A stretch of DNA of 64,000 nt, from assembly GCA_942492795.1 (NCBI GenBank), contig OW818639.1, positions 1,685,358 through 1,749,357 on the forward strand. Reading direction: 5' to 3'. A model generated the notes under the pieces. The model did not search any database. It saw only the letters and a program-made list of their open reading frames with translations, and was not told the DNA's origin. This DNA is from an uncultured Christensenellaceae bacterium (GTDB lineage Bacteria; Bacillota; Clostridia; Christensenellales; QAND01). Numbering within the stretch: the stretch's first letter is position 1; every line of letters begins with the position of its first letter. Below are positions 3,855-16,125 of the stretch, in pieces. A program made the position numbers and the translations under genes.

Positions 3855-4895
3855 TTACAAAGACAGGTCGATGTGATGGATGGTACCTGCCGTTCCGTTC
3901 TCCTTCAGGTAAAAGGAACTGGATCGCATTGTACCGTAATCGCTTGTCGAGTCCTTGATGCTAAACGGGGTCGCGGCGCTTTGAAGATAAATCGCGCCGA
4001 TTCCCACATCGCTTAAGCGAACCAGTGTCCGTTGTCCTGCCTGATCACTTGAGAGGATGGCAAGCTTGCGAAACACGTCGTCCGACTCGTCTATCCAGCC
4101 GTTGCCGTCAAGATCGTATAGCTGCAGGTCTTCGAATCCATTGCCCGACTGTGGTCCGAAAAGCTCGGTGCCGTCGTTGATTTGCCCGTCGCCGTTCTTG
4201 TCCAGGGCCAAAAAGCCGCTGCCGTTGGTGGCGAAGGCTATCCGGTCCAGCTTCCCGTCGCCGTCAATGTCGAAATCCTGCTTGAGCGTTGTTAACGCCG
4301 GGGCGCTGCCCTGCGCAACAACAACCAGCGGATCAACCTTTGCGGCATCTCCCATTCGGATTGTGGTGTTTTGCTGCTCTACGAACGCGCGCGACAGACT
4401 GAAATTGACTTTAAACGCTATCGTCTTGCCGCCGGAGGTGGTGACCGTGCCTTCTGCGTTGTATTGAACGCTTTCGTTTTCCGCCACGGTTTGCTGATAC
4501 TCGTAAACCAGCCCCCAGCCATCCCGATTGCTCTGTCCGGTCACCGTTTGTGAAGTGCTGAGCATTACGGCTGGCTGAGGATTGTGCAGCCGGAGCTCCG
4601 GGGAGCGAAGTTTGACAGTTTTTCCCGTCATTTGGTAGATCAGAGACTCGATCAGTTTCAGTTTTACGTCGGTGGTCTGATCCTCTACCGATTCGGCATC
4701 GGTATTTGCGACCGAACAAGGCTTCGCTGTTTTGTACTGGTATGGATTGGGTTTGTTTCCAATTTCCACCACATACGCCACGTTCTGATCGGTATTCGGC
4801 CGATTGTGCCAAACTTCCAGCTTTTGTGTGATTTCCTTTTCGGAGTCCATTCGATAGGTAGTCTTTGTTTGTACATTACTATCGATGATTCTCAT
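3855..4895 (-). CDS. Hypothetical cytoplasmic protein with three EF-hand-type Ca-binding loops
   Basis: 346 aa with no signal peptide. Loops DKNGDGQINDGTE, DLDGNGWIDESD and DIDGDGKLDRIA fit the 12-residue EF-hand pattern. RBS AAGGAGG at 7 nt from the start. Confidence 0.55.
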   Translation of the reverse strand: MRIIDSNVQTKTTYRMDSEKEITQKLEVWHNRPNTDQNVAYVVEIGNKPNPYQYKTAKPCSVANTDAESVEDQTTDVKLKLIESLIYQMTGKTVKLRSPELRLHNPQPAVMLSTSQTVTGQSNRDGWGLVYEYQQTVAENESVQYNAEGTVTTSGGKTIAFKVNFSLSRAFVEQQNTTIRMGDAAKVDPLVVVAQGSAPALTTLKQDFDIDGDGKLDRIAFATNGSGFLALDKNGDGQINDGTELFGPQSGNGFEDLQLYDLDGNGWIDESDDVFRKLAILSSDQAGQRTLVRLSDVGIGAIYLQSAATPFSIKDSTSDYGTMRSSSFYLKENGTAGTIHHIDLSL

Positions 4896-5004
4896 TTTTC
4901 GCCTCCTTGCATCATTGTTAACCCGAATCCTTCGGGTATTGTGATAGACCCCTCAAATCTAGAATCGAAACTTTGCCATCCCGACATTAACAAAATGTGA
5001 AATA

Positions 5005-5036
5005 ATTTAAAAAGCGAGCCTAATCAAACGGCCCGC
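5005..5036 (-). terminator. Rho-independent terminator after the GT2 synthase gene (minus strand)
   Basis: Minus-strand stem GCGGGCC..GGCTCGC followed by TTTTT. It separates the GT2 gene from the EF-hand gene. Confidence 0.5.
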
Positions 5037-5074
5037 TGTTTATCCTTTTGCAGGTATACCGAACCTGTAATTCG

Positions 5075-7066
5075 TCAAGTTTTCGTATCCCCGGAGCGAA
5101 ATGAATACAGGCGCCGCATCAATGCACGAGCGTCGGATGCTTTTAAATCCACAGCATCCAAACCATCCGGAAAGACAAAGGTTGATTTATCAGGCATGTT
5201 GTTTTCGGGCGATTCGACCGATGCCCGATCGGTCAACAGGGAAGCCTGTTCCAGGTTAAACAGGCGTTGCTGAAGCAAGTCAAGGTGTCGGTTGTCTTCT
5301 TCATAAACGGATGAGCGCAACAGATCAAGATGGTGCTGCTCCATACGTTGCGAGCTCTGCCTCAATTCTTGAAGCCTATGCTCCATTTCACGCGCGTTCG
5401 TTCGCTCGGACATGGTTGCATCTGCCGAATCCACATAACGGGCATTTATTTCTTTAAATTCCGTCGCCAATCGCAGATTCTCCTCTACCACCTCATGCAG
5501 GCGCTGTTCGTAGGCCTTCTGACTTTTGAGAATATATCCGTACAACGTCAGTCTGTAGGCATCCACCTGCTTGGCGTTCAAGCCGATCAATGTGCGTTTG
5601 AGCGGGCGAAATGCAGAGGTTCTGTAATTGCCATACAACTGCGCTGTGGTTGGGCTCGATTTGTCACCTGTGAACGTTTTACGCTGCATGCTGCCCCAGC
5701 TGTTCTTTTGTTTTCGATAGGCAAACAGCGCCTCAACCCGAAAAATCGTGTTGATTTGCCGGTATCCGAAATTGTCTATGATGGCATAGAATGTAAGCTT
5801 TAGCAACTGCCTGAAAGACGGATACTTTTTAAATGTGTTTTCTTCCAAAAGCAGGGCGCCGATGGACAGTACGATGCCGTAGAGTACAGCCACGGCAAAG
5901 AAACCGAGAAAGAAATTAACGTTGATGATACCCATTGCATACGAGATCGGAACGGCAATGTAGCCCAAGAGTTCAAAGACAGGGCCGACGAATTCGAACA
6001 GCCAGTAATAGGGCAGACTTGCCATGCCAATGCGCCCGTATTTCGGGTTCAACAGCATCTTCTTATGTTTGAACAGGGAGAACATAAGCCCGATCTGCCA
6101 GCGTCTGCGCTGCTTGCGAAGATCCTTTACGGTTTCAGGCGGCTGCGTCCAGCATACGGGGTCGGGAATGAATTTGATGCGGTATTTTGTTTTTCGCTCG
6201 CGCAGCATCCGATGCATCTTGATGACAAGTTCCATATCTTCGCCGATGCAGTCGTTGGAATATCCGCCTGCCTCGATCGCGGTTTGCTTGTTGAATGCGC
6301 CGAAGGCACCGGATACGATAAGCAACATGCCCATTGCGTCAAAACCGATGCGTCCCGTCAAAAAGGAGCGGAGATATTCCACCGTCTGCAGATTGACGAT
6401 TGCCTTTCGGGACAAGTCAATCGTTTTTAGCTCTCCGTCCACAATCTTGCATCCGCTCGCGATGCGGACGATGCCGCCGACACCCACCACCCTGTGGTCT
6501 TTGACAAAGGGCATGATTATTTTGATCAGCGATTCCTTTTCAAGAATGGAATCGGCATCGATGGATACAAACACGGGGTAGCGTGAAACGTTGATGCCGG
6601 CATTGAGCGCGTCCGCCTTGCCACCGTTACGCTTGTCGATAATGACAAGATTCGGATGATCGGGCGAACGATAAATCGCATTTACTTCCTTCGTTTGCAG
6701 CGACCGCTTAAACGGCTGGTTTACGGCAAAGAGCTTAAACGTTTGAATCAGAAGCGGCAAGGTTTTATCCTTTGATCCGTCGTTGATGATGATAAGCTCG
6801 TATTCGGGGAAGTTCAGTGCCAGCAGATTCTTAACATTGTCGATAATCGTTGCTTCTTCGTTGTACGCAGGCACCAACAGCGAAATTGGGATCATATTCT
6901 CGGAATCGACGTAGCGTTCATGATCGGAATAGTGGCGAGACTTTACATATTTGCTCAGGCTCAGCGAAGAACTGATCAGTTGAACAAGGTACACGCAGTC
7001 CACCAATATCACGTAAATCAGCGATAAAACGTTGATCGCAATGATCGCAAAATAGAACGGGTTCAT
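5075..7066 (-). CDS. Processive family-2 glycosyltransferase (PgaC/IcaA/cellulose-synthase-like polysaccharide synthase) with a ~200-aa C-terminal coiled-coil extension
   Basis: N-terminal TM helix, then a GT-A domain (LLVPAYNEE, DADS). QRRRW matches the QxxRW motif of processive synthases. A multi-TM block follows, then a heptad-rich tail (QKAYEQRLHEVVEENLRLATEFKE...). The start overlaps the stop of the upstream gene (ATGA). Confidence 0.8.
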   Translation of the reverse strand: MNPFYFAIIAINVLSLIYVILVDCVYLVQLISSSLSLSKYVKSRHYSDHERYVDSENMIPISLLVPAYNEEATIIDNVKNLLALNFPEYELIIINDGSKDKTLPLLIQTFKLFAVNQPFKRSLQTKEVNAIYRSPDHPNLVIIDKRNGGKADALNAGINVSRYPVFVSIDADSILEKESLIKIIMPFVKDHRVVGVGGIVRIASGCKIVDGELKTIDLSRKAIVNLQTVEYLRSFLTGRIGFDAMGMLLIVSGAFGAFNKQTAIEAGGYSNDCIGEDMELVIKMHRMLRERKTKYRIKFIPDPVCWTQPPETVKDLRKQRRRWQIGLMFSLFKHKKMLLNPKYGRIGMASLPYYWLFEFVGPVFELLGYIAVPISYAMGIINVNFFLGFFAVAVLYGIVLSIGALLLEENTFKKYPSFRQLLKLTFYAIIDNFGYRQINTIFRVEALFAYRKQKNSWGSMQRKTFTGDKSSPTTAQLYGNYRTSAFRPLKRTLIGLNAKQVDAYRLTLYGYILKSQKAYEQRLHEVVEENLRLATEFKEINARYVDSADATMSERTNAREMEHRLQELRQSSQRMEQHHLDLLRSSVYEEDNRHLDLLQQRLFNLEQASLLTDRASVESPENNMPDKSTFVFPDGLDAVDLKASDARALMRRLYSFRSGDTKT

Positions 7067-10000
7067 AGCGCCACCTGCCTTTTGGTTTGACTTGCCATGA
7101 ATTGAAGAATATCATACGCGTATTTGTCGCCCGATTGTTTGACGCTCACGAGCAGTCCATCGATATCGGAATATTCCGCAAGCGCTTTTGCCGCATTGTA
7201 ACGAACCTGCCATTCCCGGTCGAACAACACATCGGCGATCTGCGGGGCATAGCGTTCCAAATCGATGCCGGATAGCGCTGAGGCTGCAATGCTTCGAACT
7301 TCCCACCGCACGTGTGATAATAGTTCGATGAGTTTGGGTGCTGCGGGGGCATATTTCAGCTGTCCCAGCGTTCGCGCCGCGTCAAGGACGGTGTTGAAGT
7401 CCTCACTTTCAAGGCAGGGGTGTATCAACGGTGCAAATCCGTCCAACCCTTCCAACCCGATGCGCTTGATGCAGATACGCCGGACGAACTTGTCGGGAGA
7501 GTCCAGCAACGCTCCGTACAATGCGCATTTATCACCGTCATACACTTTGAATATTTCCTGAAGGCTCCGGAAGGAAAGCGTCTGGATGTAGTTTTTATCC
7601 TGTGCAATGTGAACGATCTGTTCATGACCGGCCAACTGGGCCAAGCTTAGCAAGCCCTGGTACTGCAGATCGATATCGCTTTTATGCTTATACAGAAGTT
7701 TCATGATGTCATTTGCGAATACCGTGAGCTTCAATTCGCCGACAAGGCGGATGGTAATGATCAGATCGCCGATGTTGCGGTCTTTTATCCGACGCTTCAG
7801 AACTCTTTCAAATCCCGCTGCAATAACCAGTTCGCGCAACGCTTTTTCATACGGCTCATCATTTCCTTCGAACAGATCAACCAATATGGCAAGTCCTTTG
7901 CGTGAGCGCATCTTGTTCAGCTTCGCGGATACGTCGGCAGCGGACTTGTAATTCCGTTGCACCGCATGCACGGACGCCGTCACGCTGGCCTTCAGATGCT
8001 GCTTTCTGCGCTCGCGGATGGCCGTCTGTGTATGGATGTACATAAGCGCCAGAATAAAATAGACGATCAGGGAAAGCATGAACGCGATCATATAGTTTAA
8101 AACAGGCTGAATGGGGAACCATGTGGCGATTTTGGAAAACGCGGATTGGTTCCATTTTAACCAAAAGAGCTCAAAGCCGGTGCGCTGCGAAACATGCGCC
8201 GATGCGATGTTGGCAAAATAGTCCTTTACGATGAAATAGGACTTTTTAAGCCGTTCGTGATATGTGGGTTGTTCCCATTTCTGCCATGTGTATTTGCCGA
8301 TACCGCCGGTGCCCGTTTGGGAGGTGACGCCGAAGGTGAATCCATCCGCTTCCTGGGCTTTGATGCCCTGATTCCGGTACATGTTTCCGATGATCTTTTT
8401 GCCGGAAGGATCCATGACGTTGAGCAGCAGCCACGGAATGCGTATTTCAACAGATCCGTTGCCATAAAAGAGATCGGAAAGGGAATCGTAGTCGCCCGAA
8501 TTCGGGTTTGCGTTGCCATATCGGAGTTTTCCGGCGTCGAACATGGAAAACGGAACGCTCTGGCCTGTTTGAGGTATGGACAATGCGCGGTTTAGTACCT
8601 GCGTGATGGTCACGAAGTTACCGGTATCGGTTTTTTCGAATTCCGGATTGCGGGCCAATAAGGTTTTGCTCACACCGTATTCGTAATAGGTGACGTCATA
8701 ATGAGGGTCCACCAACAGCATGCTGTTGTCGCGGCCCGATATCACAAGCATGAAATCCGCGCCCATGTTCAGGTTTATGCCTTGATACGAAGTATTTCCC
8801 TGATCGGCGATGGTATCGATCGGGATATAGAGCGTATCGCGGGCAAAATCGGCAATGTTTACCTTGAGATAAACAAATGCCTCGTCCGATTTTACATAGA
8901 GCTTCGTTTCGCCGTTTTGCGCTATAAGATCGGTTTCTTTCCATTCGGACGGATCCCCGTCCACCGTTGCAGCGGTTGCGGTATTGCCGGGATCAAATGC
9001 CAGAAGCCCGAAGTTCTGCTCGTTTGTCTGGTAATCCAGCCAGTAAGCACGATTGTCTTTCAGATCCAGATCCATCGTGTTCCAGGTGGTCTTAAACCAC
9101 TCGTCGTCCCAGGAAAAGATCAGTGCACCCATGCAGCCTTCGGATTTGATATCCCCGATCAGGGAAGTGAGCATACGGCCTTGTTCGGATTCCTCAACGT
9201 TTCCCTGGTTAAACCCCGTCAGCATGTTTTCGTGGGCAATACCGCGGGATGCGGGTATACCAACCTCCGCCACAAGCAAAGGCACGCTGTGGTACGCATC
9301 AAGTTCCTTTAAGTAAGCGGCATATGTGTTCTTGTTTCCGCCCTGTTGGTATTTGACTTCATAGCTGAACATGTCCGGGTAATAGGGGTAAATATGATAG
9401 GAAGCGAAAAAGCCTGCTTCAAATCCGTCTTTTGCAACAAGATGCTCCACATCCACGCTGACGGCATCCTCTTTGGGGTTGGGCTCATTCGGATGCGAAA
9501 GCGGATCGGTCGTAACCCAGTTGCAAATCGCAACCGGGCGCTGTTCTTTATAATGCAGGGTTTCATATGCAATGGCCGTATCGGCCGCTTCCGCCAAAAA
9601 TGCTTCAAACGGGGACGCGTTATCGGTTTTCACAAAGGTGCCGTCATAACTATTCAAAGTAGGATTGTTCGTGTTGGTGGTGATGACAAACGCGGGATCC
9701 CACTCGATGCCTAAAATCAAACCTATGACATATTGCGAAACGTCTGCCCGATAGATTCCACCCGCGTTGCCCGGTAACTTCTGGATAGTCGCTTTGCCGT
9801 GGATGATGTCGACGGCGCGCTTGATATCCGCATTAAAGTCCACCTTGATTTTGCCGTCCTGGGCATAGGCATCCTGGTATTGTGCAATATCCGCTTCGTT
9901 GTTGTATACACCCTGCATGAGATACAGCGGATTTGAAGCGGTTTCGTTGAATTCATAAAGCGCTTCATAGAACACGGGCATCATCAGCGTATAGACGCGG

Positions 10001-10302
10001 ATGGTGTTGGCATTCATGTCGCTTATGTATTGGAACCAACGCAGGTATTCCTGTTTGGTGATGGACAGCTCACCGGGATAGCTGCCGGGTTTGGCGGAAC
10101 CCAGGTTTACACCCGCCACAAAAAGTTTCTTCCAATAGCCTTGTTCATCGTAAATTAAAAAGTTTTTGCCCTGCGTTTTGCCGACGTAGGCTATGCCGTT
10201 TTCGCTGTGGTATTTTTGAGAATAGGAACCTTGAAGAAGATAGAGCCGGTTGCCGAAAAAAACGGCGACAAGCACCGAAAAAAACAGTATATAGCCGAGC
10301 AT
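7063..10302 (-). CDS. Large bipartite membrane protein: extracellular clan GH-A-like TIM-barrel glycoside hydrolase domain, TM helix, cytoplasmic HEAT (PBS-lyase-type) repeats
   Basis: N-terminal signal anchor KRIMLGYILFFSVLVAVFF. Candidate acid/base HPNEP and nucleophile-like LLVAEVGIP spaced as in GH-A families. TM helix near residue 760 (LNYMIAFMLSLIVYFILALMYI). C-terminal repeated W/F-x-VR-x-xAAxALG HEAT units. The ORF extends to 10398 by a GTG, but no start has a good RBS; ATG 10302 is used here, so the start is uncertain. Confidence 0.7.
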   Translation of the reverse strand: MLGYILFFSVLVAVFFGNRLYLLQGSYSQKYHSENGIAYVGKTQGKNFLIYDEQGYWKKLFVAGVNLGSAKPGSYPGELSITKQEYLRWFQYISDMNANTIRVYTLMMPVFYEALYEFNETASNPLYLMQGVYNNEADIAQYQDAYAQDGKIKVDFNADIKRAVDIIHGKATIQKLPGNAGGIYRADVSQYVIGLILGIEWDPAFVITTNTNNPTLNSYDGTFVKTDNASPFEAFLAEAADTAIAYETLHYKEQRPVAICNWVTTDPLSHPNEPNPKEDAVSVDVEHLVAKDGFEAGFFASYHIYPYYPDMFSYEVKYQQGGNKNTYAAYLKELDAYHSVPLLVAEVGIPASRGIAHENMLTGFNQGNVEESEQGRMLTSLIGDIKSEGCMGALIFSWDDEWFKTTWNTMDLDLKDNRAYWLDYQTNEQNFGLLAFDPGNTATAATVDGDPSEWKETDLIAQNGETKLYVKSDEAFVYLKVNIADFARDTLYIPIDTIADQGNTSYQGINLNMGADFMLVISGRDNSMLLVDPHYDVTYYEYGVSKTLLARNPEFEKTDTGNFVTITQVLNRALSIPQTGQSVPFSMFDAGKLRYGNANPNSGDYDSLSDLFYGNGSVEIRIPWLLLNVMDPSGKKIIGNMYRNQGIKAQEADGFTFGVTSQTGTGGIGKYTWQKWEQPTYHERLKKSYFIVKDYFANIASAHVSQRTGFELFWLKWNQSAFSKIATWFPIQPVLNYMIAFMLSLIVYFILALMYIHTQTAIRERRKQHLKASVTASVHAVQRNYKSAADVSAKLNKMRSRKGLAILVDLFEGNDEPYEKALRELVIAAGFERVLKRRIKDRNIGDLIITIRLVGELKLTVFANDIMKLLYKHKSDIDLQYQGLLSLAQLAGHEQIVHIAQDKNYIQTLSFRSLQEIFKVYDGDKCALYGALLDSPDKFVRRICIKRIGLEGLDGFAPLIHPCLESEDFNTVLDAARTLGQLKYAPAAPKLIELLSHVRWEVRSIAASALSGIDLERYAPQIADVLFDREWQVRYNAAKALAEYSDIDGLLVSVKQSGDKYAYDILQFMASQTKRQVAL

Positions 10303-10540
10303 GATTCGTTTAGGAATGATGTTTTCCTCAATTCCATAAAAGTATGACGGAAAGGCCTTTTCCTTTGTGTGACAAGTACTTACAAAGCACAGGCTCACTG
10401 GGTAAAAGTCGCCAACATATTTCGATATCAGTATACAGGAAACGACATGGCGTTGGAATATGGCTGATCGGTATAAATTAAAAAATATCCAGAATAAACG
10501 TTGTATTTTTTATTGAAACAAAGATACAAACAGCACGATA

Positions 10541-10590
10541 AAAAACAAAAGGGAAAAGCCGGAAAGAGCGTTCCTCTTTCCGGCTTTTCG
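10541..10590. terminator. Rho-independent terminator after the larA-like gene (also shields the EPS-module promoter region)
   Basis: Stem GCCGGAAAGAG / CTCTTTCCGGC, flanked by A/T runs on both sides. Confidence 0.7.
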
Positions 10591-10650
10591 TGGGTGAGGC
10601 TTTTATATCCCGGTATATACTGTTTGCCCCGATATAATGGGTTAGAGCAG

Positions 10651-11919
10651 TTAGAGGATGTTCCCGTCTTTGTCAAACACAAGCGAATATGGTTCGGAAG
10701 CGATCTCAAGATAGGGATTCGCCAGCACCTCATCCATCAGAGACTCGCTGACTTCGATGACATCCAGCTGCAAGGTATTTTTGATCCGGACGAGTCGCAC
10801 ATTTTCCTTGTCCAGGATGTTGCAGGTCTTGATGGCTGCCTGGAACACCTGCAAGTCGTTTTTGAACACCATCGGCATCTTGACCGTAAGCGGAACGGTG
10901 GATGTCAAAGCATTCGGATAGGATTGTTCCGGAATGAACTTGTCTGCCAGGCGTTTGGTGGTGTAGTCGACAATACCGACGCCATTCGCATTGCCGTGTG
11001 AACGATCCGTCAGATCAAGGATGCCCATTTTGGAGATGTTCGGGCCGCCGGATATGAAAGGCGTATGATAGCGCCCCACAACGCCGGTGTCAAATCCCGT
11101 TCCGCTGATATCCTTGCCGATCTCATCCATGATGAGCACGTCGAGCTGATCGAACTGTATGCGCGGGCACAACTCTCTGGAAAGCAGCTGCAAACCGATT
11201 TCACGCTCGGCAATCTCATCCTTGTTCAACACAACCAGCGTGTGTGTTTCATGGAAGGCATTTTCCAGCAAGCCTACCGCAAAGAGGATGTTCTTCATTT
11301 CGATCATCACATTTGCGATCTCCGGGATGTTTACCGCCATCTTTCCAAAACCCAATTCATGGCAAATATCTGCGCCTTGCTGCTTGCCCAATCCGATGGT
11401 GAGCATTTTCATCAGACCGCTCTCATAAGGCCCGCGGAACGATGTATGCGGCTTGATGCGGTTGATGATGACGATGCCATCCGCCTCGCTTGCGTATTTA
11501 TCCATCAGAACAGGCAAGCCGTTCACCGTTTCTGCAAGCTGCACCGTTTCCATGGAGGCATGGATCGGGGCATCCACGTAATCCTCCGTGATGCCCATGC
11601 CTTCAAGCATGCTCTTTTGGCCTTCGGCCGTTGCGCCGCCGTGGCTGCCCATCGCGGGTACGATGAAAGGTTCCGCACCTTTTTCGCGAAGTTTTGCGAT
11701 GATGATCTTCACACACAGCGGCAGATTCGTGATCCCCCGGCTGCCCACTGCGACGGCAATTTTCATACCGGGCGTGATGGATCGGTATCCTCTGTTGGAT
11801 TGAATCTGTTCCATCAGCGTTGCTTCGACGTCTTCTAGCTTTGTGCGGTCAAAGGTTTGCGTGACTTTCATCACTTTTGGAATCGGAATGCCCTCAAGCA
11901 ATATATCAATAGCGTCCAT
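10651..11919 (-). CDS. LarA-family (nickel-pincer cofactor-dependent) lactate/2-hydroxyacid racemase-like protein (DUF2088)
   Basis: 422 aa. Length and overall pattern match LarA (AVAVGSRGI, PAMGSHGG, INRIKPHTSF). Assignment is by motif recollection only. Confidence 0.5.
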   Translation of the reverse strand: MDAIDILLEGIPIPKVMKVTQTFDRTKLEDVEATLMEQIQSNRGYRSITPGMKIAVAVGSRGITNLPLCVKIIIAKLREKGAEPFIVPAMGSHGGATAEGQKSMLEGMGITEDYVDAPIHASMETVQLAETVNGLPVLMDKYASEADGIVIINRIKPHTSFRGPYESGLMKMLTIGLGKQQGADICHELGFGKMAVNIPEIANVMIEMKNILFAVGLLENAFHETHTLVVLNKDEIAEREIGLQLLSRELCPRIQFDQLDVLIMDEIGKDISGTGFDTGVVGRYHTPFISGGPNISKMGILDLTDRSHGNANGVGIVDYTTKRLADKFIPEQSYPNALTSTVPLTVKMPMVFKNDLQVFQAAIKTCNILDKENVRLVRIKNTLQLDVIEVSESLMDEVLANPYLEIASEPYSLVFDKDGNIL

Positions 11920-13915: not shown

Positions 13916-15298
13916 ATGCTTGCAGGTGCTTTTATCGTGCCGCATCCGCCACTGGCGATAGCGCAAGTAGGGCGGGGACAGGAAAAAGAAATTCAAAAGA
14001 CCATCGATGCGTTGCTGGATGTTGCGAAGCGGATCGCGGATTTGAAGCCGGATACCATCGTTCTGACGACGCCCCATTCCGTACTGTATGCGGATTATTT
14101 TCATATTTCGCCAGGATCGGGCGCGAAAGGGGATTTCAGGACTTTCGGCGCCGGTGATGCCGGAATGAAAGTGGACTATGACACGGAGTTCGTCGAAAGT
14201 ATATCCCAAATCGCCGGAGCGCGGGATATTCCCGCCGGAACGCAGGGCGAGCGGGACAAGACGCTGGATCATGGAACGCTGGTGCCGCTGATGTTTGTCA
14301 ACCGCTTTTATACGGCGTACAAGCTCGTCCGTATCGGGCTTTCAGGCCTTTCGCTGCTCACACACTACCAATTTGGAAAATGCATCCAGGAAGCTGCTCT
14401 TCGTAGCGACAAACGTATGGTGCTGATTGCAAGCGGCGATCTGTCGCATAAGCTCAAATCGGACGGCCCCTATGGTTTTGCGCCGGAAGGCCCGGAATTC
14501 GACCGCAACGTTACCGAGGCGATGGCAAACGGAGATTTCCTGCGGTTTCTTGACTTTGAAGAGGAAATCTCTGAAGCGGCAGCAGAATGCGGCTTGCGTT
14601 CCTTTGTCATCATGGTGGGAGCGCTGGACGGCCTTATGGTCAAACCGGAGCTTTTAAGCTACGAAGGACCTTATGGCGTAGGATATGCCGTTGCATCTTT
14701 TTCCATAGAGGGTACGGATGAAAACAGACATTTCGATATCCTGTTTGAACAACAGGAAAAAGAACGGCTCGATGAGCGCAGGGCAAGCGAAGACGCGTAT
14801 GTGCGCTTGGCCAGGCAGACGGTTGAACACTATGTCAGGACGGGCACGCACATAAAAAGACCGGAAGGACTTCCTGATTCGATGACGGCACAGCGGGCAG
14901 GCGTGTTCGTATCGCTTAAAAAGGAAGGGAAACTCCGGGGCTGCATCGGGACCATCTCTGCGGTGACACAAAGCATCGCGGATGAAATCATCAAAATGGC
15001 CGTGAGCGCCGCTGTGGAAGATCCGCGCTTTGCCGCCGTGCGTAAAGAGGAATTGCCCAAACTGGTGTATAGCGTTGACGTTTTGATGATGCCGGAGCCC
15101 ATCTTATCCATCGATGAGCTCGATGTGAAACAATACGGTGTCATCGTCCGTTCCCGCGGCAAGCTGGGGCTTCTGCTGCCGAATCTTCAAGGCGTAGACA
15201 CACCGCAGCAGCAGGTCGAGGTCGCGCTGCAAAAAGGAAATATATCCCCAAACGACACATACTCGATGGAGCGCTTTAAGGTGGTTAGACACACATGA
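13916..15298 (+). CDS. AmmeMemoRadiSam system fusion protein (MEMO1-like protein B domain + AMMECR1 protein A domain)
   Basis: N-terminal extradiol-dioxygenase-like region (IVPHPP...HS...SGDLSH) and C-terminal AMMECR1 motif GVFVSLKKEGKLRGCIGT. 460 aa. Stop overlaps the radical-SAM gene. Confidence 0.8.
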   Translation: MLAGAFIVPHPPLAIAQVGRGQEKEIQKTIDALLDVAKRIADLKPDTIVLTTPHSVLYADYFHISPGSGAKGDFRTFGAGDAGMKVDYDTEFVESISQIAGARDIPAGTQGERDKTLDHGTLVPLMFVNRFYTAYKLVRIGLSGLSLLTHYQFGKCIQEAALRSDKRMVLIASGDLSHKLKSDGPYGFAPEGPEFDRNVTEAMANGDFLRFLDFEEEISEAAAECGLRSFVIMVGALDGLMVKPELLSYEGPYGVGYAVASFSIEGTDENRHFDILFEQQEKERLDERRASEDAYVRLARQTVEHYVRTGTHIKRPEGLPDSMTAQRAGVFVSLKKEGKLRGCIGTISAVTQSIADEIIKMAVSAAVEDPRFAAVRKEELPKLVYSVDVLMMPEPILSIDELDVKQYGVIVRSRGKLGLLLPNLQGVDTPQQQVEVALQKGNISPNDTYSMERFKVVRHT

Positions 15299-16125
15299 GC
15301 AAACTGGGATGCACTATCTGCCCGCATCATTGCATGCTGGATGAAAATGAGATCGGGTTTTGCAACGCCAGGAGCAATATCGGCGGTGCCATTACTGCGA
15401 TCAACTATGGAAAGATTACAGCCATTGCGCTGGATCCGATCGAAAAGAAACCGCTGTATCGGTTTTATCCTAAAAGCACCATCCTTTCGGTGGGAAGCTT
15501 CGGATGCAACCTGCGCTGCCCGTTTTGCCAGAATTTCGAGATTTCCATGGCGGACAGTCAAAGCACCGTTGTACGGGAGATGACGCCGGAGGAGCTCGCA
15601 GATCTTGCCGTAACCAAGAAGAGCCAGGGCAATATCGGCGTTGCCTATACCTATAACGAACCGCTGATAGGCTATGAATTCGTGCGCGACTGTTCGCAGG
15701 CGGTACATCGGCGCGGTCTTAAAAACGTGCTGGTCACCAACGGCTATATCTGTGAAGAACCGTTCAAACAGCTTCTGCCCGATATCGATGCGCTGAACAT
15801 CGATTTAAAGGCGTTTTCGGAAGAATTCTACAAACGCATCTCCGGCGACCTTCAAACGGTCAAGCGATCCATCGAATTGGCAGCGAAGCGATGCCATGTG
15901 GAAGTGACGACGCTAGTCATCCCGGGCGAAAACGACGACGAAGAGGATATCCGAAGCCTCAGCCGTTGGTTGGCATCTGTACGCTTTGATATTCCGCTGC
16001 ATCTGACACGATTTTTCCCGCGCTATAAGATGACGGACAAGAACATGACGCAGATTGCTTCGATTCAAAGACTGGCCGAAATCGCGAGAGAATCGCTTCG
16101 TTATGTCTTCATCGGAAACTGTTAA
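15295..16125 (+). CDS. AmmeMemoRadiSam system radical SAM enzyme (PFL-activase-like)
   Basis: [10 protein letters not shown] (CxxxCxxC) radical-SAM cluster motif. 276 aa. Translationally coupled to the A/B fusion. Confidence 0.85.

Follow-up and report, generated by a model that had tools for sequence, protein, structure and literature searches.

A two-gene locus of an uncultured Christensenellaceae bacterium read as the fusion form of a Gram-positive ectoenzyme, HEAT-repeat protein and glycosyltransferase module

Introduction

What kind of machine is encoded by two overlapping genes, one for a membrane glycosyltransferase of family GT2 and the other for an enzyme-like extracellular domain joined through the membrane to cytosolic HEAT repeats? 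The locus that raises this question lies in contig OW818639.1 of an uncultured Christensenellaceae bacterium (assembly GCA_942492795.1) and was analysed within a stretch of 64,000 nucleotides, hereafter the window. Both genes are on the minus strand of the window, as are all their features given below. Gene A (7063..10398) is a fusion of an ectoenzyme (ECTO) with a bitopic HEAT protein, and encodes 1111 aa from GTG 10398 or 1079 aa from ATG 10302. Gene B (5075..7066) encodes 663 aa and consists of a GT2 and a C-terminal tail. Residues of gene A are numbered here from ATG 10302; 32 is added for numbering from GTG 10398.

A first-pass annotation, made from the letters alone, had proposed that the pair is a minimal two-protein synthase/hydrolase machine. 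There are indeed two genes here, but the pair is better read as the fusion form of a three-component system. Gram-positive synthase-dependent exopolysaccharide systems are far less mapped than the proteobacterial systems for cellulose, poly-N-acetylglucosamine (PNAG), Pel and alginate, and the main interest of the locus lies in the conserved ECTO/HEAT/GT2 module itself, more than in the docking of its parts that had been imagined earlier.

Results and Discussion

Distribution and gene order of the ECTO/HEAT/GT2 triad

Hidden Markov models (HMMs) were built for ECTO, the HEAT module, the GT2 core, the tail of gene B and the GGDEF domain, and were used to scan the 80 best ECTO loci, each from a species, together with the other loci that were fetched. 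At 90% identity the ECTO family divides into more than 3,900 clusters, and it occurs in at least 587 species genomes. The triad ranges over Clostridia of the gut, Bacilli of the soil with Paenibacillus, Tenericutes and Deinococcus. Among the 80 species loci, the cognate GT2 was found within 8 kb of ECTO in 57, HEAT in 52 and both in 51, which bears out the suggestion that the parts of the pair are conserved as neighbours. In all 56 loci having both HEAT and GT2, HEAT immediately precedes GT2 on the same strand; the spacing ranges from -34 to +119 nt, and in most cases the two overlap. The GT2 is tail-less in 55 of these 56 loci and has a length of 404-479 aa.

ECTO, HEAT and GT2 occur as three separate genes, and several further arrangements were found. 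The order is ECTO/GGDEF/HEAT/GT2 in Carnobacterium, Thermobrachium and Clostridium, GGDEF/HEAT/GT2/long-ECTO in Bacillaceae, and divergent-ECTO/HEAT/GT2/ECTO/ECTO in Ruminococcaceae and relatives. An ECTO-HEAT fusion followed by GT2 is present in the window and in loci L001, L003, L004, L015 and L094, while Trichococcus, Izemoplasmatales and Heliophilum have ECTO/GGDEF and then a HEAT-GT2 fusion. HEAT and GT2 also stand without an adjacent ectoenzyme (L007 and L009). Because HEAT is fused to either of its neighbours, the Rosetta-stone argument suggests that the three proteins form one assembly, with HEAT partnering the synthase core. From these sequence comparisons, we read the window pair as the gene-fusion form of a widespread Gram-positive triad of an ectoenzyme, a bitopic HEAT protein and a GT2. 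The natural fusions could be used directly in structural studies of the transmembrane coupling between a synthase, a cytosolic regulator and an extracellular hydrolase.

The triad is also carried by plasmids of Deinococcus radiophilus and Planococcus maritimus, where the annotations go no further than a HEAT-repeat protein, a glycosyltransferase and, for the remaining gene, a TPR protein in Deinococcus and a hypothetical protein in Planococcus. No description of the triad as a HEAT/GT2/GGDEF system was found in the literature, of which subscription papers were thinly covered, and the ECTO/HEAT/GT2 triad is apparently undescribed. Two leads from the literature, RiGT2 (PMC10374906), which has a PilZ domain, and PMC5342196, proved to be unrelated to it.

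Some neighbours of the triad in other genomes are recorded here as side observations. In seven loci (L032, L033, L036, L040, L051, L058 and L087), ECTO lies 1-5 kb from a different GT2 of about 450 aa with an HMM score of 53-72, and this weakly matching GT2 may be a second type of partner synthase. On the Planococcus maritimus plasmid, the triad is preceded by genes for a polyphosphate polymerase domain protein, a DUF4956 protein and a CotH kinase family protein (L091:4991-7847), a trio typical of spore-coat or VTC-like clusters. In a Christensenellales genome, a divergent cluster on the minus strand adjoins the triad (L004:1-5676) and encodes a 1117-aa protein with Polysacc_deac_1, a 685-aa GT2 and a 724-aa protein without Pfam match; these genes may make up a system of their own, PNAG-like or Yda-like.

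HEAT module and membrane topology of gene A

The cytosolic HEAT-repeat module of gene A (aa 757-1079; 7066..8034) was recognized by Pfam, by PDB sequences and by homologs. Pfam placed HEAT_2, HEAT and HEAT_PBS at aa 931-1045, and the isolated domain scored 60.8 bits with HEAT_2 (1.5e-16), 38.7 with HEAT and 28.4 with HEAT_PBS, all above the cutoffs. Its matches among PDB sequences are designed alphaRep/HEAT proteins, down to 1.7e-16, and its free-standing homologs share 40-50% identity with it. The HEAT repeats that had been noticed by eye are thus confirmed.

Gene A has two transmembrane (TM) helices by hydropathy, with basic residues on their cytosolic sides. The N-terminal helix (aa 5-23; 10234..10290), a signal anchor, has KR ahead of it and appears in the model as a helix at residues 2-16. 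The second (aa 738-756; 8035..8091) equals the single TM helix of free HEAT proteins. Free ECTO proteins have the N-terminal TM helix only and end just past a conserved PTYHERLK.SY motif; in free HEAT proteins, a short stub on the outside is followed by one TM helix and the cytosolic HEAT domain. Given these two layouts, gene A is topologically coherent as ECTO joined to the outside end of a HEAT protein. The topology proposed earlier, with the barrel outside and HEAT inside, agrees both with the flanking charges and with the free-standing forms. The natural HEAT-GT2 fusions (L005, L027 and L090) have one extra TM helix between the modules, which is what is needed if the N-terminus of the GT2 is outside.

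The ectodomain resembles clan GH-A enzymes

The ectodomain (715 aa) was modelled by AlphaFold with 51 homologs, at a pLDDT of 89 and a pTM of 0.87. It is predicted to form the (beta/alpha)8 barrel of glycoside hydrolase (GH) clan GH-A at about aa 60-430 (9013..10125). This is followed by a beta-sandwich region at about aa 431-700 (8203..9012), delimited from the secondary structure of the model, which ends in the PTYHERLK.SY motif. The top structural match in Foldseek was a GH157 endo-glucanase (1.5e-12), with an alignment that covers the full GH157 protein, and the fold neighbours also include GH17, GH72, GH5 and GH113. At the sequence level, aa 1-760 had no match in Pfam or NCBIfam, and the ectodomain profile matched nothing among PDB sequences at E<=10. 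Being without a Pfam family, the ectoenzyme is a candidate for a new GH family, apparently outside the existing sequence families (GH157, GH2, GH5, GH39 and others).

Two glutamates, E200 (codon 9703..9705; GIEWD, after barrel strand 4) and E346 (codon 9265..9267; AEVG, after barrel strand 7), are conserved without exception in the 100 sequences of the main and para2 groups. Other invariant barrel residues are R102 on strand 2, N261 on strand 5, H303 and Y305 on strand 6 and W398 on strand 8. From this invariance and the strand order, with positions taken from the secondary-structure order of the model and not from superposition, E200 is the probable acid/base and E346 the probable nucleophile, in the classic clan GH-A layout except for an Ile before the strand-4 Glu. 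The extracellular clan-GH-A-like barrel of the first-pass annotation is therefore supported by the predicted fold, the GH157 match and the invariant residues. Of the two catalytic contexts that it had named, EVG is probably right, since E346 is invariant, and NEP (aa 272-274) is probably wrong, as it follows strand 5 and its N272 is variable.

An ectodomain that does not hydrolyse the polymer is the alternative that survives best. It could be a transglycosylase comparable to GH72 Gas/Gel or GH17, for remodelling or wall attachment, or it could guide the chain, in analogy to BcsB, with little or no catalysis. The Ile-Glu in place of the Asn-Glu signature fits such a role, as does the double membrane tether beside the synthase, which resembles BcsB; moreover, the Glu pair is gone from the ectoL paralogs described below, and a non-catalytic role thus has a precedent within the family. 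Against this, the main family keeps a fully invariant constellation of GH-A type, which argues for catalysis, and the top structural match is an endo-glucanase of GH157. We consider this alternative unlikely, and continue to read the ectodomain as a putative hydrolase.

Of the relatives of the ectodomain, some are annotated as 'family 2 glycosyl transferase'. YdaN of B. subtilis has been called a putative glycosyltransferase (PMC5422440), and an identification of the ectodomain with YdaN was entertained and dropped: its counterpart in Listeria, PssD, is orthologous to BcsB (PMC4125290) and the ectodomain is a GH-A barrel, YdaN itself not having been compared. In many loci (L023, L026, L028, L030, L037, L041, L042, L044, L048-L053, L057, L060, L064-L066 and L074), the first operon gene encodes a divergent paralog, here called ectoL, of about 1000 aa with an N-terminal extension of about 380 aa that has no Pfam match. 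It lacks the E200/E346 pair and most other invariant residues, and two intact ECTO copies often follow the GT2. ectoL may be a pseudo-enzyme subunit.

The tail of gene B and the supposed docking of HEAT

The tail of gene B (aa 466-663; 5078..5671) was modelled as a linker, a short helix, a helix of about 118 residues (498-615), a disordered stretch and a conserved terminal helix (ARALMRRLY). The first-pass annotation had noticed this unusual tail as a coiled coil of about 200 aa; the tail is indeed there, but it is a single long helix and not a 200-aa coiled coil. The short helix carries a degenerate motif of GpsB/DivIVA type, LIGLNAKQVDAY, with LIGLN where free-standing relatives have LFGYN. 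Nearly all of about 7,900 gene B homologs are about 470 aa long, and among them an extension of about 190 aa is present only in P0121, the partner of P0004 in locus L001. Between the window and P0121, the tails align poorly and are about 25% conserved, the cores about 78%.

A full HMMER scan of 1.84 billion representatives gave 10 relatives of the tail. One is a fragment of a near-identical GT2-tail protein. The other nine are free-standing proteins of 136-202 aa that start with M..FKRSLFGYNRxQVD, and the one that was placed (P0263 in L093) lies after lgt, far from polysaccharide genes. Pfam DivIVA (PF05103) gave 12-22.6 bits in 7 of 8 free-standing relatives, below the cutoff of 28, and on the isolated window tail Pfam gave coiled-coil noise only, with no DivIVA match. 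When the profile of the tail family was compared with PDB sequences, several GpsB N-terminal domains matched at E 0.002-0.02 and Wag31 more weakly. From these sub-threshold matches of the tail family, the tail appears to be a GpsB/DivIVA-like small protein that was fused to the synthase in this lineage. It resembles GpsB and DivIVA in architecture, with a long helix after a short N-terminal motif. It differs from them in that all matches of the tail family are below curated thresholds, the window motif is degenerate, and in the window the tail is part of an enzyme and not a scaffold on its own. The tail would plausibly serve oligomerisation, or septal or polar placement of the synthase.

It had been proposed that the HEAT scaffold docks on this tail of about 200 aa, taken as a coiled coil, and so couples the hydrolase to the synthase. 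Both elements are cytosolic, and they co-occur in the window and in L001. However, the comparison with other genomes speaks against it throughout. Nearly all HEAT+GT2 loci (55 of 56, as given above) do without the tail, and so do the GT2s, up to 81% identical to that of the window, which accompany HEAT-fused relatives of gene A in L003, L004 and L094. In addition, the tail is far less conserved than the core between the window and L001, and the homologs of the tail are free-standing GpsB/DivIVA-like proteins, of which P0263 is outside any polysaccharide locus. Docking of HEAT on the tail is rejected on these comparative grounds and seems very improbable; the HEAT domain is better taken as a partner of the synthase core.

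The core of gene B is related to processive synthases

The synthase core of gene B (aa 1-465; 5672..7066) was identified from Pfam, NCBIfam, motifs and fold. It matches Glycos_transf_2 and Glyco_tranf_2_3 of Pfam and contains the motifs DGSKD96, DAD170, GED275 and QRRRW319 (QRRRW at 6098-6112), and the D, DxD, GED and QRRRW columns are invariant or nearly so in 70 homologs. The predicted fold resembles processive membrane synthases, with GT-A motifs and a GT domain whose TM and interface helices would form a translocation channel. The motifs and the fold together support the earlier assignment to processive-type GT2s with QRRRW. The best NCBIfam match was TIGR03937 PgaC_IcaA (1.5e-43), at 149.3 bits versus a cutoff of 422.3. 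As 149 bits is far under the cutoff, gene B appears to be a relative of PgaC_IcaA and not a member. That the GT2 is instead a glycosyltransferase specific for a lipid carrier or acceptor (GtrB/DPM-like or teichoic acid decorating), with the ectodomain acting on another substrate, would fit the great breadth of the GT2 family and the low PgaC_IcaA score, but the QRRRW, GED and DAD motifs make this hardly credible.

Proposed mechanism

GT2 enzymes invert and so make beta linkages, and clan GH-A enzymes cleave beta linkages. The pairing of a GT2 with a clan GH-A enzyme is therefore chemically consistent. We think it rather probable that the locus is a synthase-dependent machine for an extracellular beta-linked polysaccharide, with three modules in two genes. 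Gene B would polymerise a nucleotide sugar in the cytosol and thread the chain through its own TM channel. The HEAT protein, with its N-terminus outside and one TM helix, would most likely be an obligatory co-subunit or regulator like PgaD/IcaD; its TM helix would pack against the synthase, and the HEAT solenoid would sit on the cytosolic face of the GT domain. The membrane-tethered GH-A enzyme with its beta-sandwich would act on the chain as it emerges, by cutting, trimming or releasing it in the manner of PslG, BcsZ, CcsZ and the C-terminal domain of PgaB. Fusion of the ectoenzyme to the outside end of the HEAT protein would fix the hydrolase at the exit of the channel. As for the polymer, the fold neighbours GH157, GH17 and GH72 hint at beta-1,3-glucan and GH5 and GH113 at mannan, though specificity cannot be read from fold neighbours. 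PNAG is made slightly less likely by the lack of a deacetylase.

Several observations weigh against this reading. No cognate GT2 was present within 8 kb in 23 of the 80 ECTO loci, some of which are on short contigs and some of which have a different GT2. In the ectodomain, E200 is preceded by Ile and not by the Asn usual in clan GH-A, and E273 of the NEP on the strand-5 loop is nearly invariant, which makes the catalytic assignment uncertain. The long helix of the tail was modelled at low confidence (pLDDT 50-70). No ligand-binding or known cyclic di-GMP (c-di-GMP) motif was found in HEAT, the conserved positions of which are generic repeat positions. Finally, no biochemistry of any family member was found in the literature.

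Comparison with described systems

The triad resembles PgaCD/IcaAD in its small membrane GT2 with a small membrane partner encoded next to it (PgaD/IcaD there, the bitopic HEAT protein here), and in its outward-facing (beta/alpha)8 enzyme, which corresponds to the C-terminal domain of PgaB. It differs in that the partner is a HEAT protein of about 350 aa and not PgaD/IcaD, and the hydrolase is GH-A/GH157-like and not GH153. No de-N-acetylase (PgaB/IcaB) and no PgaD/IcaD were found in the window or the triad operons examined; the Polysacc_deac_1 protein of L004 is in the separate divergent cluster. PgaCD is reported to respond to c-di-GMP (Steiner et al. 2013).

PslG (GH39, of Pseudomonas Psl) and CcsZ (GH5, of clostridial cellulose) are likewise tethered or secreted clan GH-A barrels at an exopolysaccharide locus with a presumed role in trimming or release of the polymer. 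Psl itself is Wzx/Wzy-like and not synthase-dependent. PslG also has a beta-sandwich domain after the barrel, as have the ectodomain and GH157. In contrast to PslG and CcsZ, the ectodomain has no sequence-level membership of GH39 or GH5, and neither of the two continues across the membrane into a cytosolic domain. CcsZ, of the clostridial cellulose synthase locus, is treated in a preprint (bioRxiv 10.1101/837344). The GH157 endo-beta-1,3-glucanase LaGH157 (PDB 9fz9 and 9g5g) shares 13-17% identity with the ectodomain, with no detectable sequence relationship, and the GH157 enzymes are soluble catabolic laminarinases instead of synthase partners.

Listeria PssA-E and B. subtilis YdaJKLMN are Firmicute systems that also combine an IcaA/PgaC-like GT2 with accessory membrane proteins, and they have a (degenerate) GGDEF protein in the operon, as have many triad operons (PMC4125290, PMC5422440 and PMC13274460). 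The Yda proteins cluster at poles and septa, which is of interest given the GpsB/DivIVA-like tail. Pss has as partners PssD, an ortholog of BcsB, and a glycosidase encoded by a gene of its own, lmo1913. HEAT is not reported in Pss or Yda, and the ectodomain has a GH-A fold. For the window, we found neither a BcsB match of the ectodomain nor a GGDEF gene. As far as the sequences tell, the triad would work like Pga/Ica, Psl (PslG), Ccs (CcsZ) and Pss/Yda but belongs to none of them; from Yda it is set apart by description only. None of the described systems has a counterpart of the HEAT subunit.

Links to c-di-GMP

The first-pass annotation had stated that no c-di-GMP receptor is in sight. This is true in the window, where a crude GGDEF model found no GGDEF gene in the 64 kb, but homologous operons often carry GGDEF genes: a GGDEF gene is in the operon in 14 of the 80 species loci and anywhere in the locus in 23. 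The in-operon proteins of Bacillaceae type have the architecture Hpt-REC-GGDEF, and both GGEEF and RxxD are intact in them. The GGDEF motifs are degenerate (SGDEF, SGKKF, EGPKF and others) in the clostridial, Trichococcus and Izemoplasma types, some of which have REC or ODP domains. In-operon genes of the degenerate type are located at L005:10563-12524, L022:10117-11619, L024:10148-11422, L027:5426-7636, L029:10043-11314 and L090:8004-9992, and their products look receptor-like by sequence. With intact cyclases in some operons and degenerate GGDEF proteins in others, there would thus be two c-di-GMP wiring schemes for the same machine.

A PilZ domain was found in none of the triad synthases. 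In-operon GGDEF genes without PilZ or another known receptor point to a c-di-GMP input by some other route. It is conceivable, at a low probability, that HEAT is an obligatory activating subunit which receives c-di-GMP, either by binding it at the HEAT/GT2 interface or by docking a REC-GGDEF protein, in a very widespread Firmicute family of synthase-dependent exopolysaccharide machines that had gone unrecognised. HEAT would then represent a new class of c-di-GMP effector and the ectoenzyme would found a new GH family for processing of the product. In the lineage of the window, regulation would have been rewired, with no GGDEF gene and with the GpsB/DivIVA-like tail directing the synthase to septa or poles.

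Transcription unit and boundaries

At the junction of the two genes, CTATGAAC, the stop codon TGA of gene A shares 4 nt (ATGA) with the ATG of gene B. These letters agree with the overlap read earlier and with a probably translationally coupled pair. The unit is bounded at its 5' side by the terminator of the upstream gene (10553..10589, minus strand; a 16-bp stem and a T-run). That gene, at 10651-11919, is LarA-like. At the other end, a terminator-like hairpin with a T-run (5009..5036, minus strand) lies 39 nt past the stop of gene B. It consists of GCGGGCC, a 9-nt loop, GGCTCGC and TTTTT, and folds at -15.6 kcal/mol (z = -4.7), which none of 200 shuffles equalled. The terminator scanner missed it, its loop limit being 8 nt. 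The two elements together uphold the isolation of the pair by terminators on both sides. No Rfam family, c-di-GMP riboswitches included, was matched at E<=1 in 4500-11000 or at the gathering threshold in the whole window, and no sigma-70-like promoter was found in the leader at 10400-10550.

The public annotation (P0001) starts gene A at GTG 10398, giving 1111 aa. No good Shine-Dalgarno sequence precedes either GTG 10398 or ATG 10302. In the closest homolog, P0002, the 32-aa upstream peptide is conserved and an Ile is aligned with the internal Met at 10302, which makes the long form from GTG 10398 a plausible real start.

Beyond the downstream hairpin, the minus strand has an open reading frame of 346 aa (3855-4895) with weak FG-GAP and EF-hand matches. 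It is probably unrelated to the pair, as it is not kept beside the pair in L001 or L094. The plus strand at 13916-16125 has the AmmeMemoRadiSam arrangement, made up of a LigB/Memo-AMMECR1 fusion gene and, overlapping it downstream, a radical-SAM gene. These two genes are also beside the triad in L001 and L094, and the neighbourhood is therefore syntenic but rearranged.

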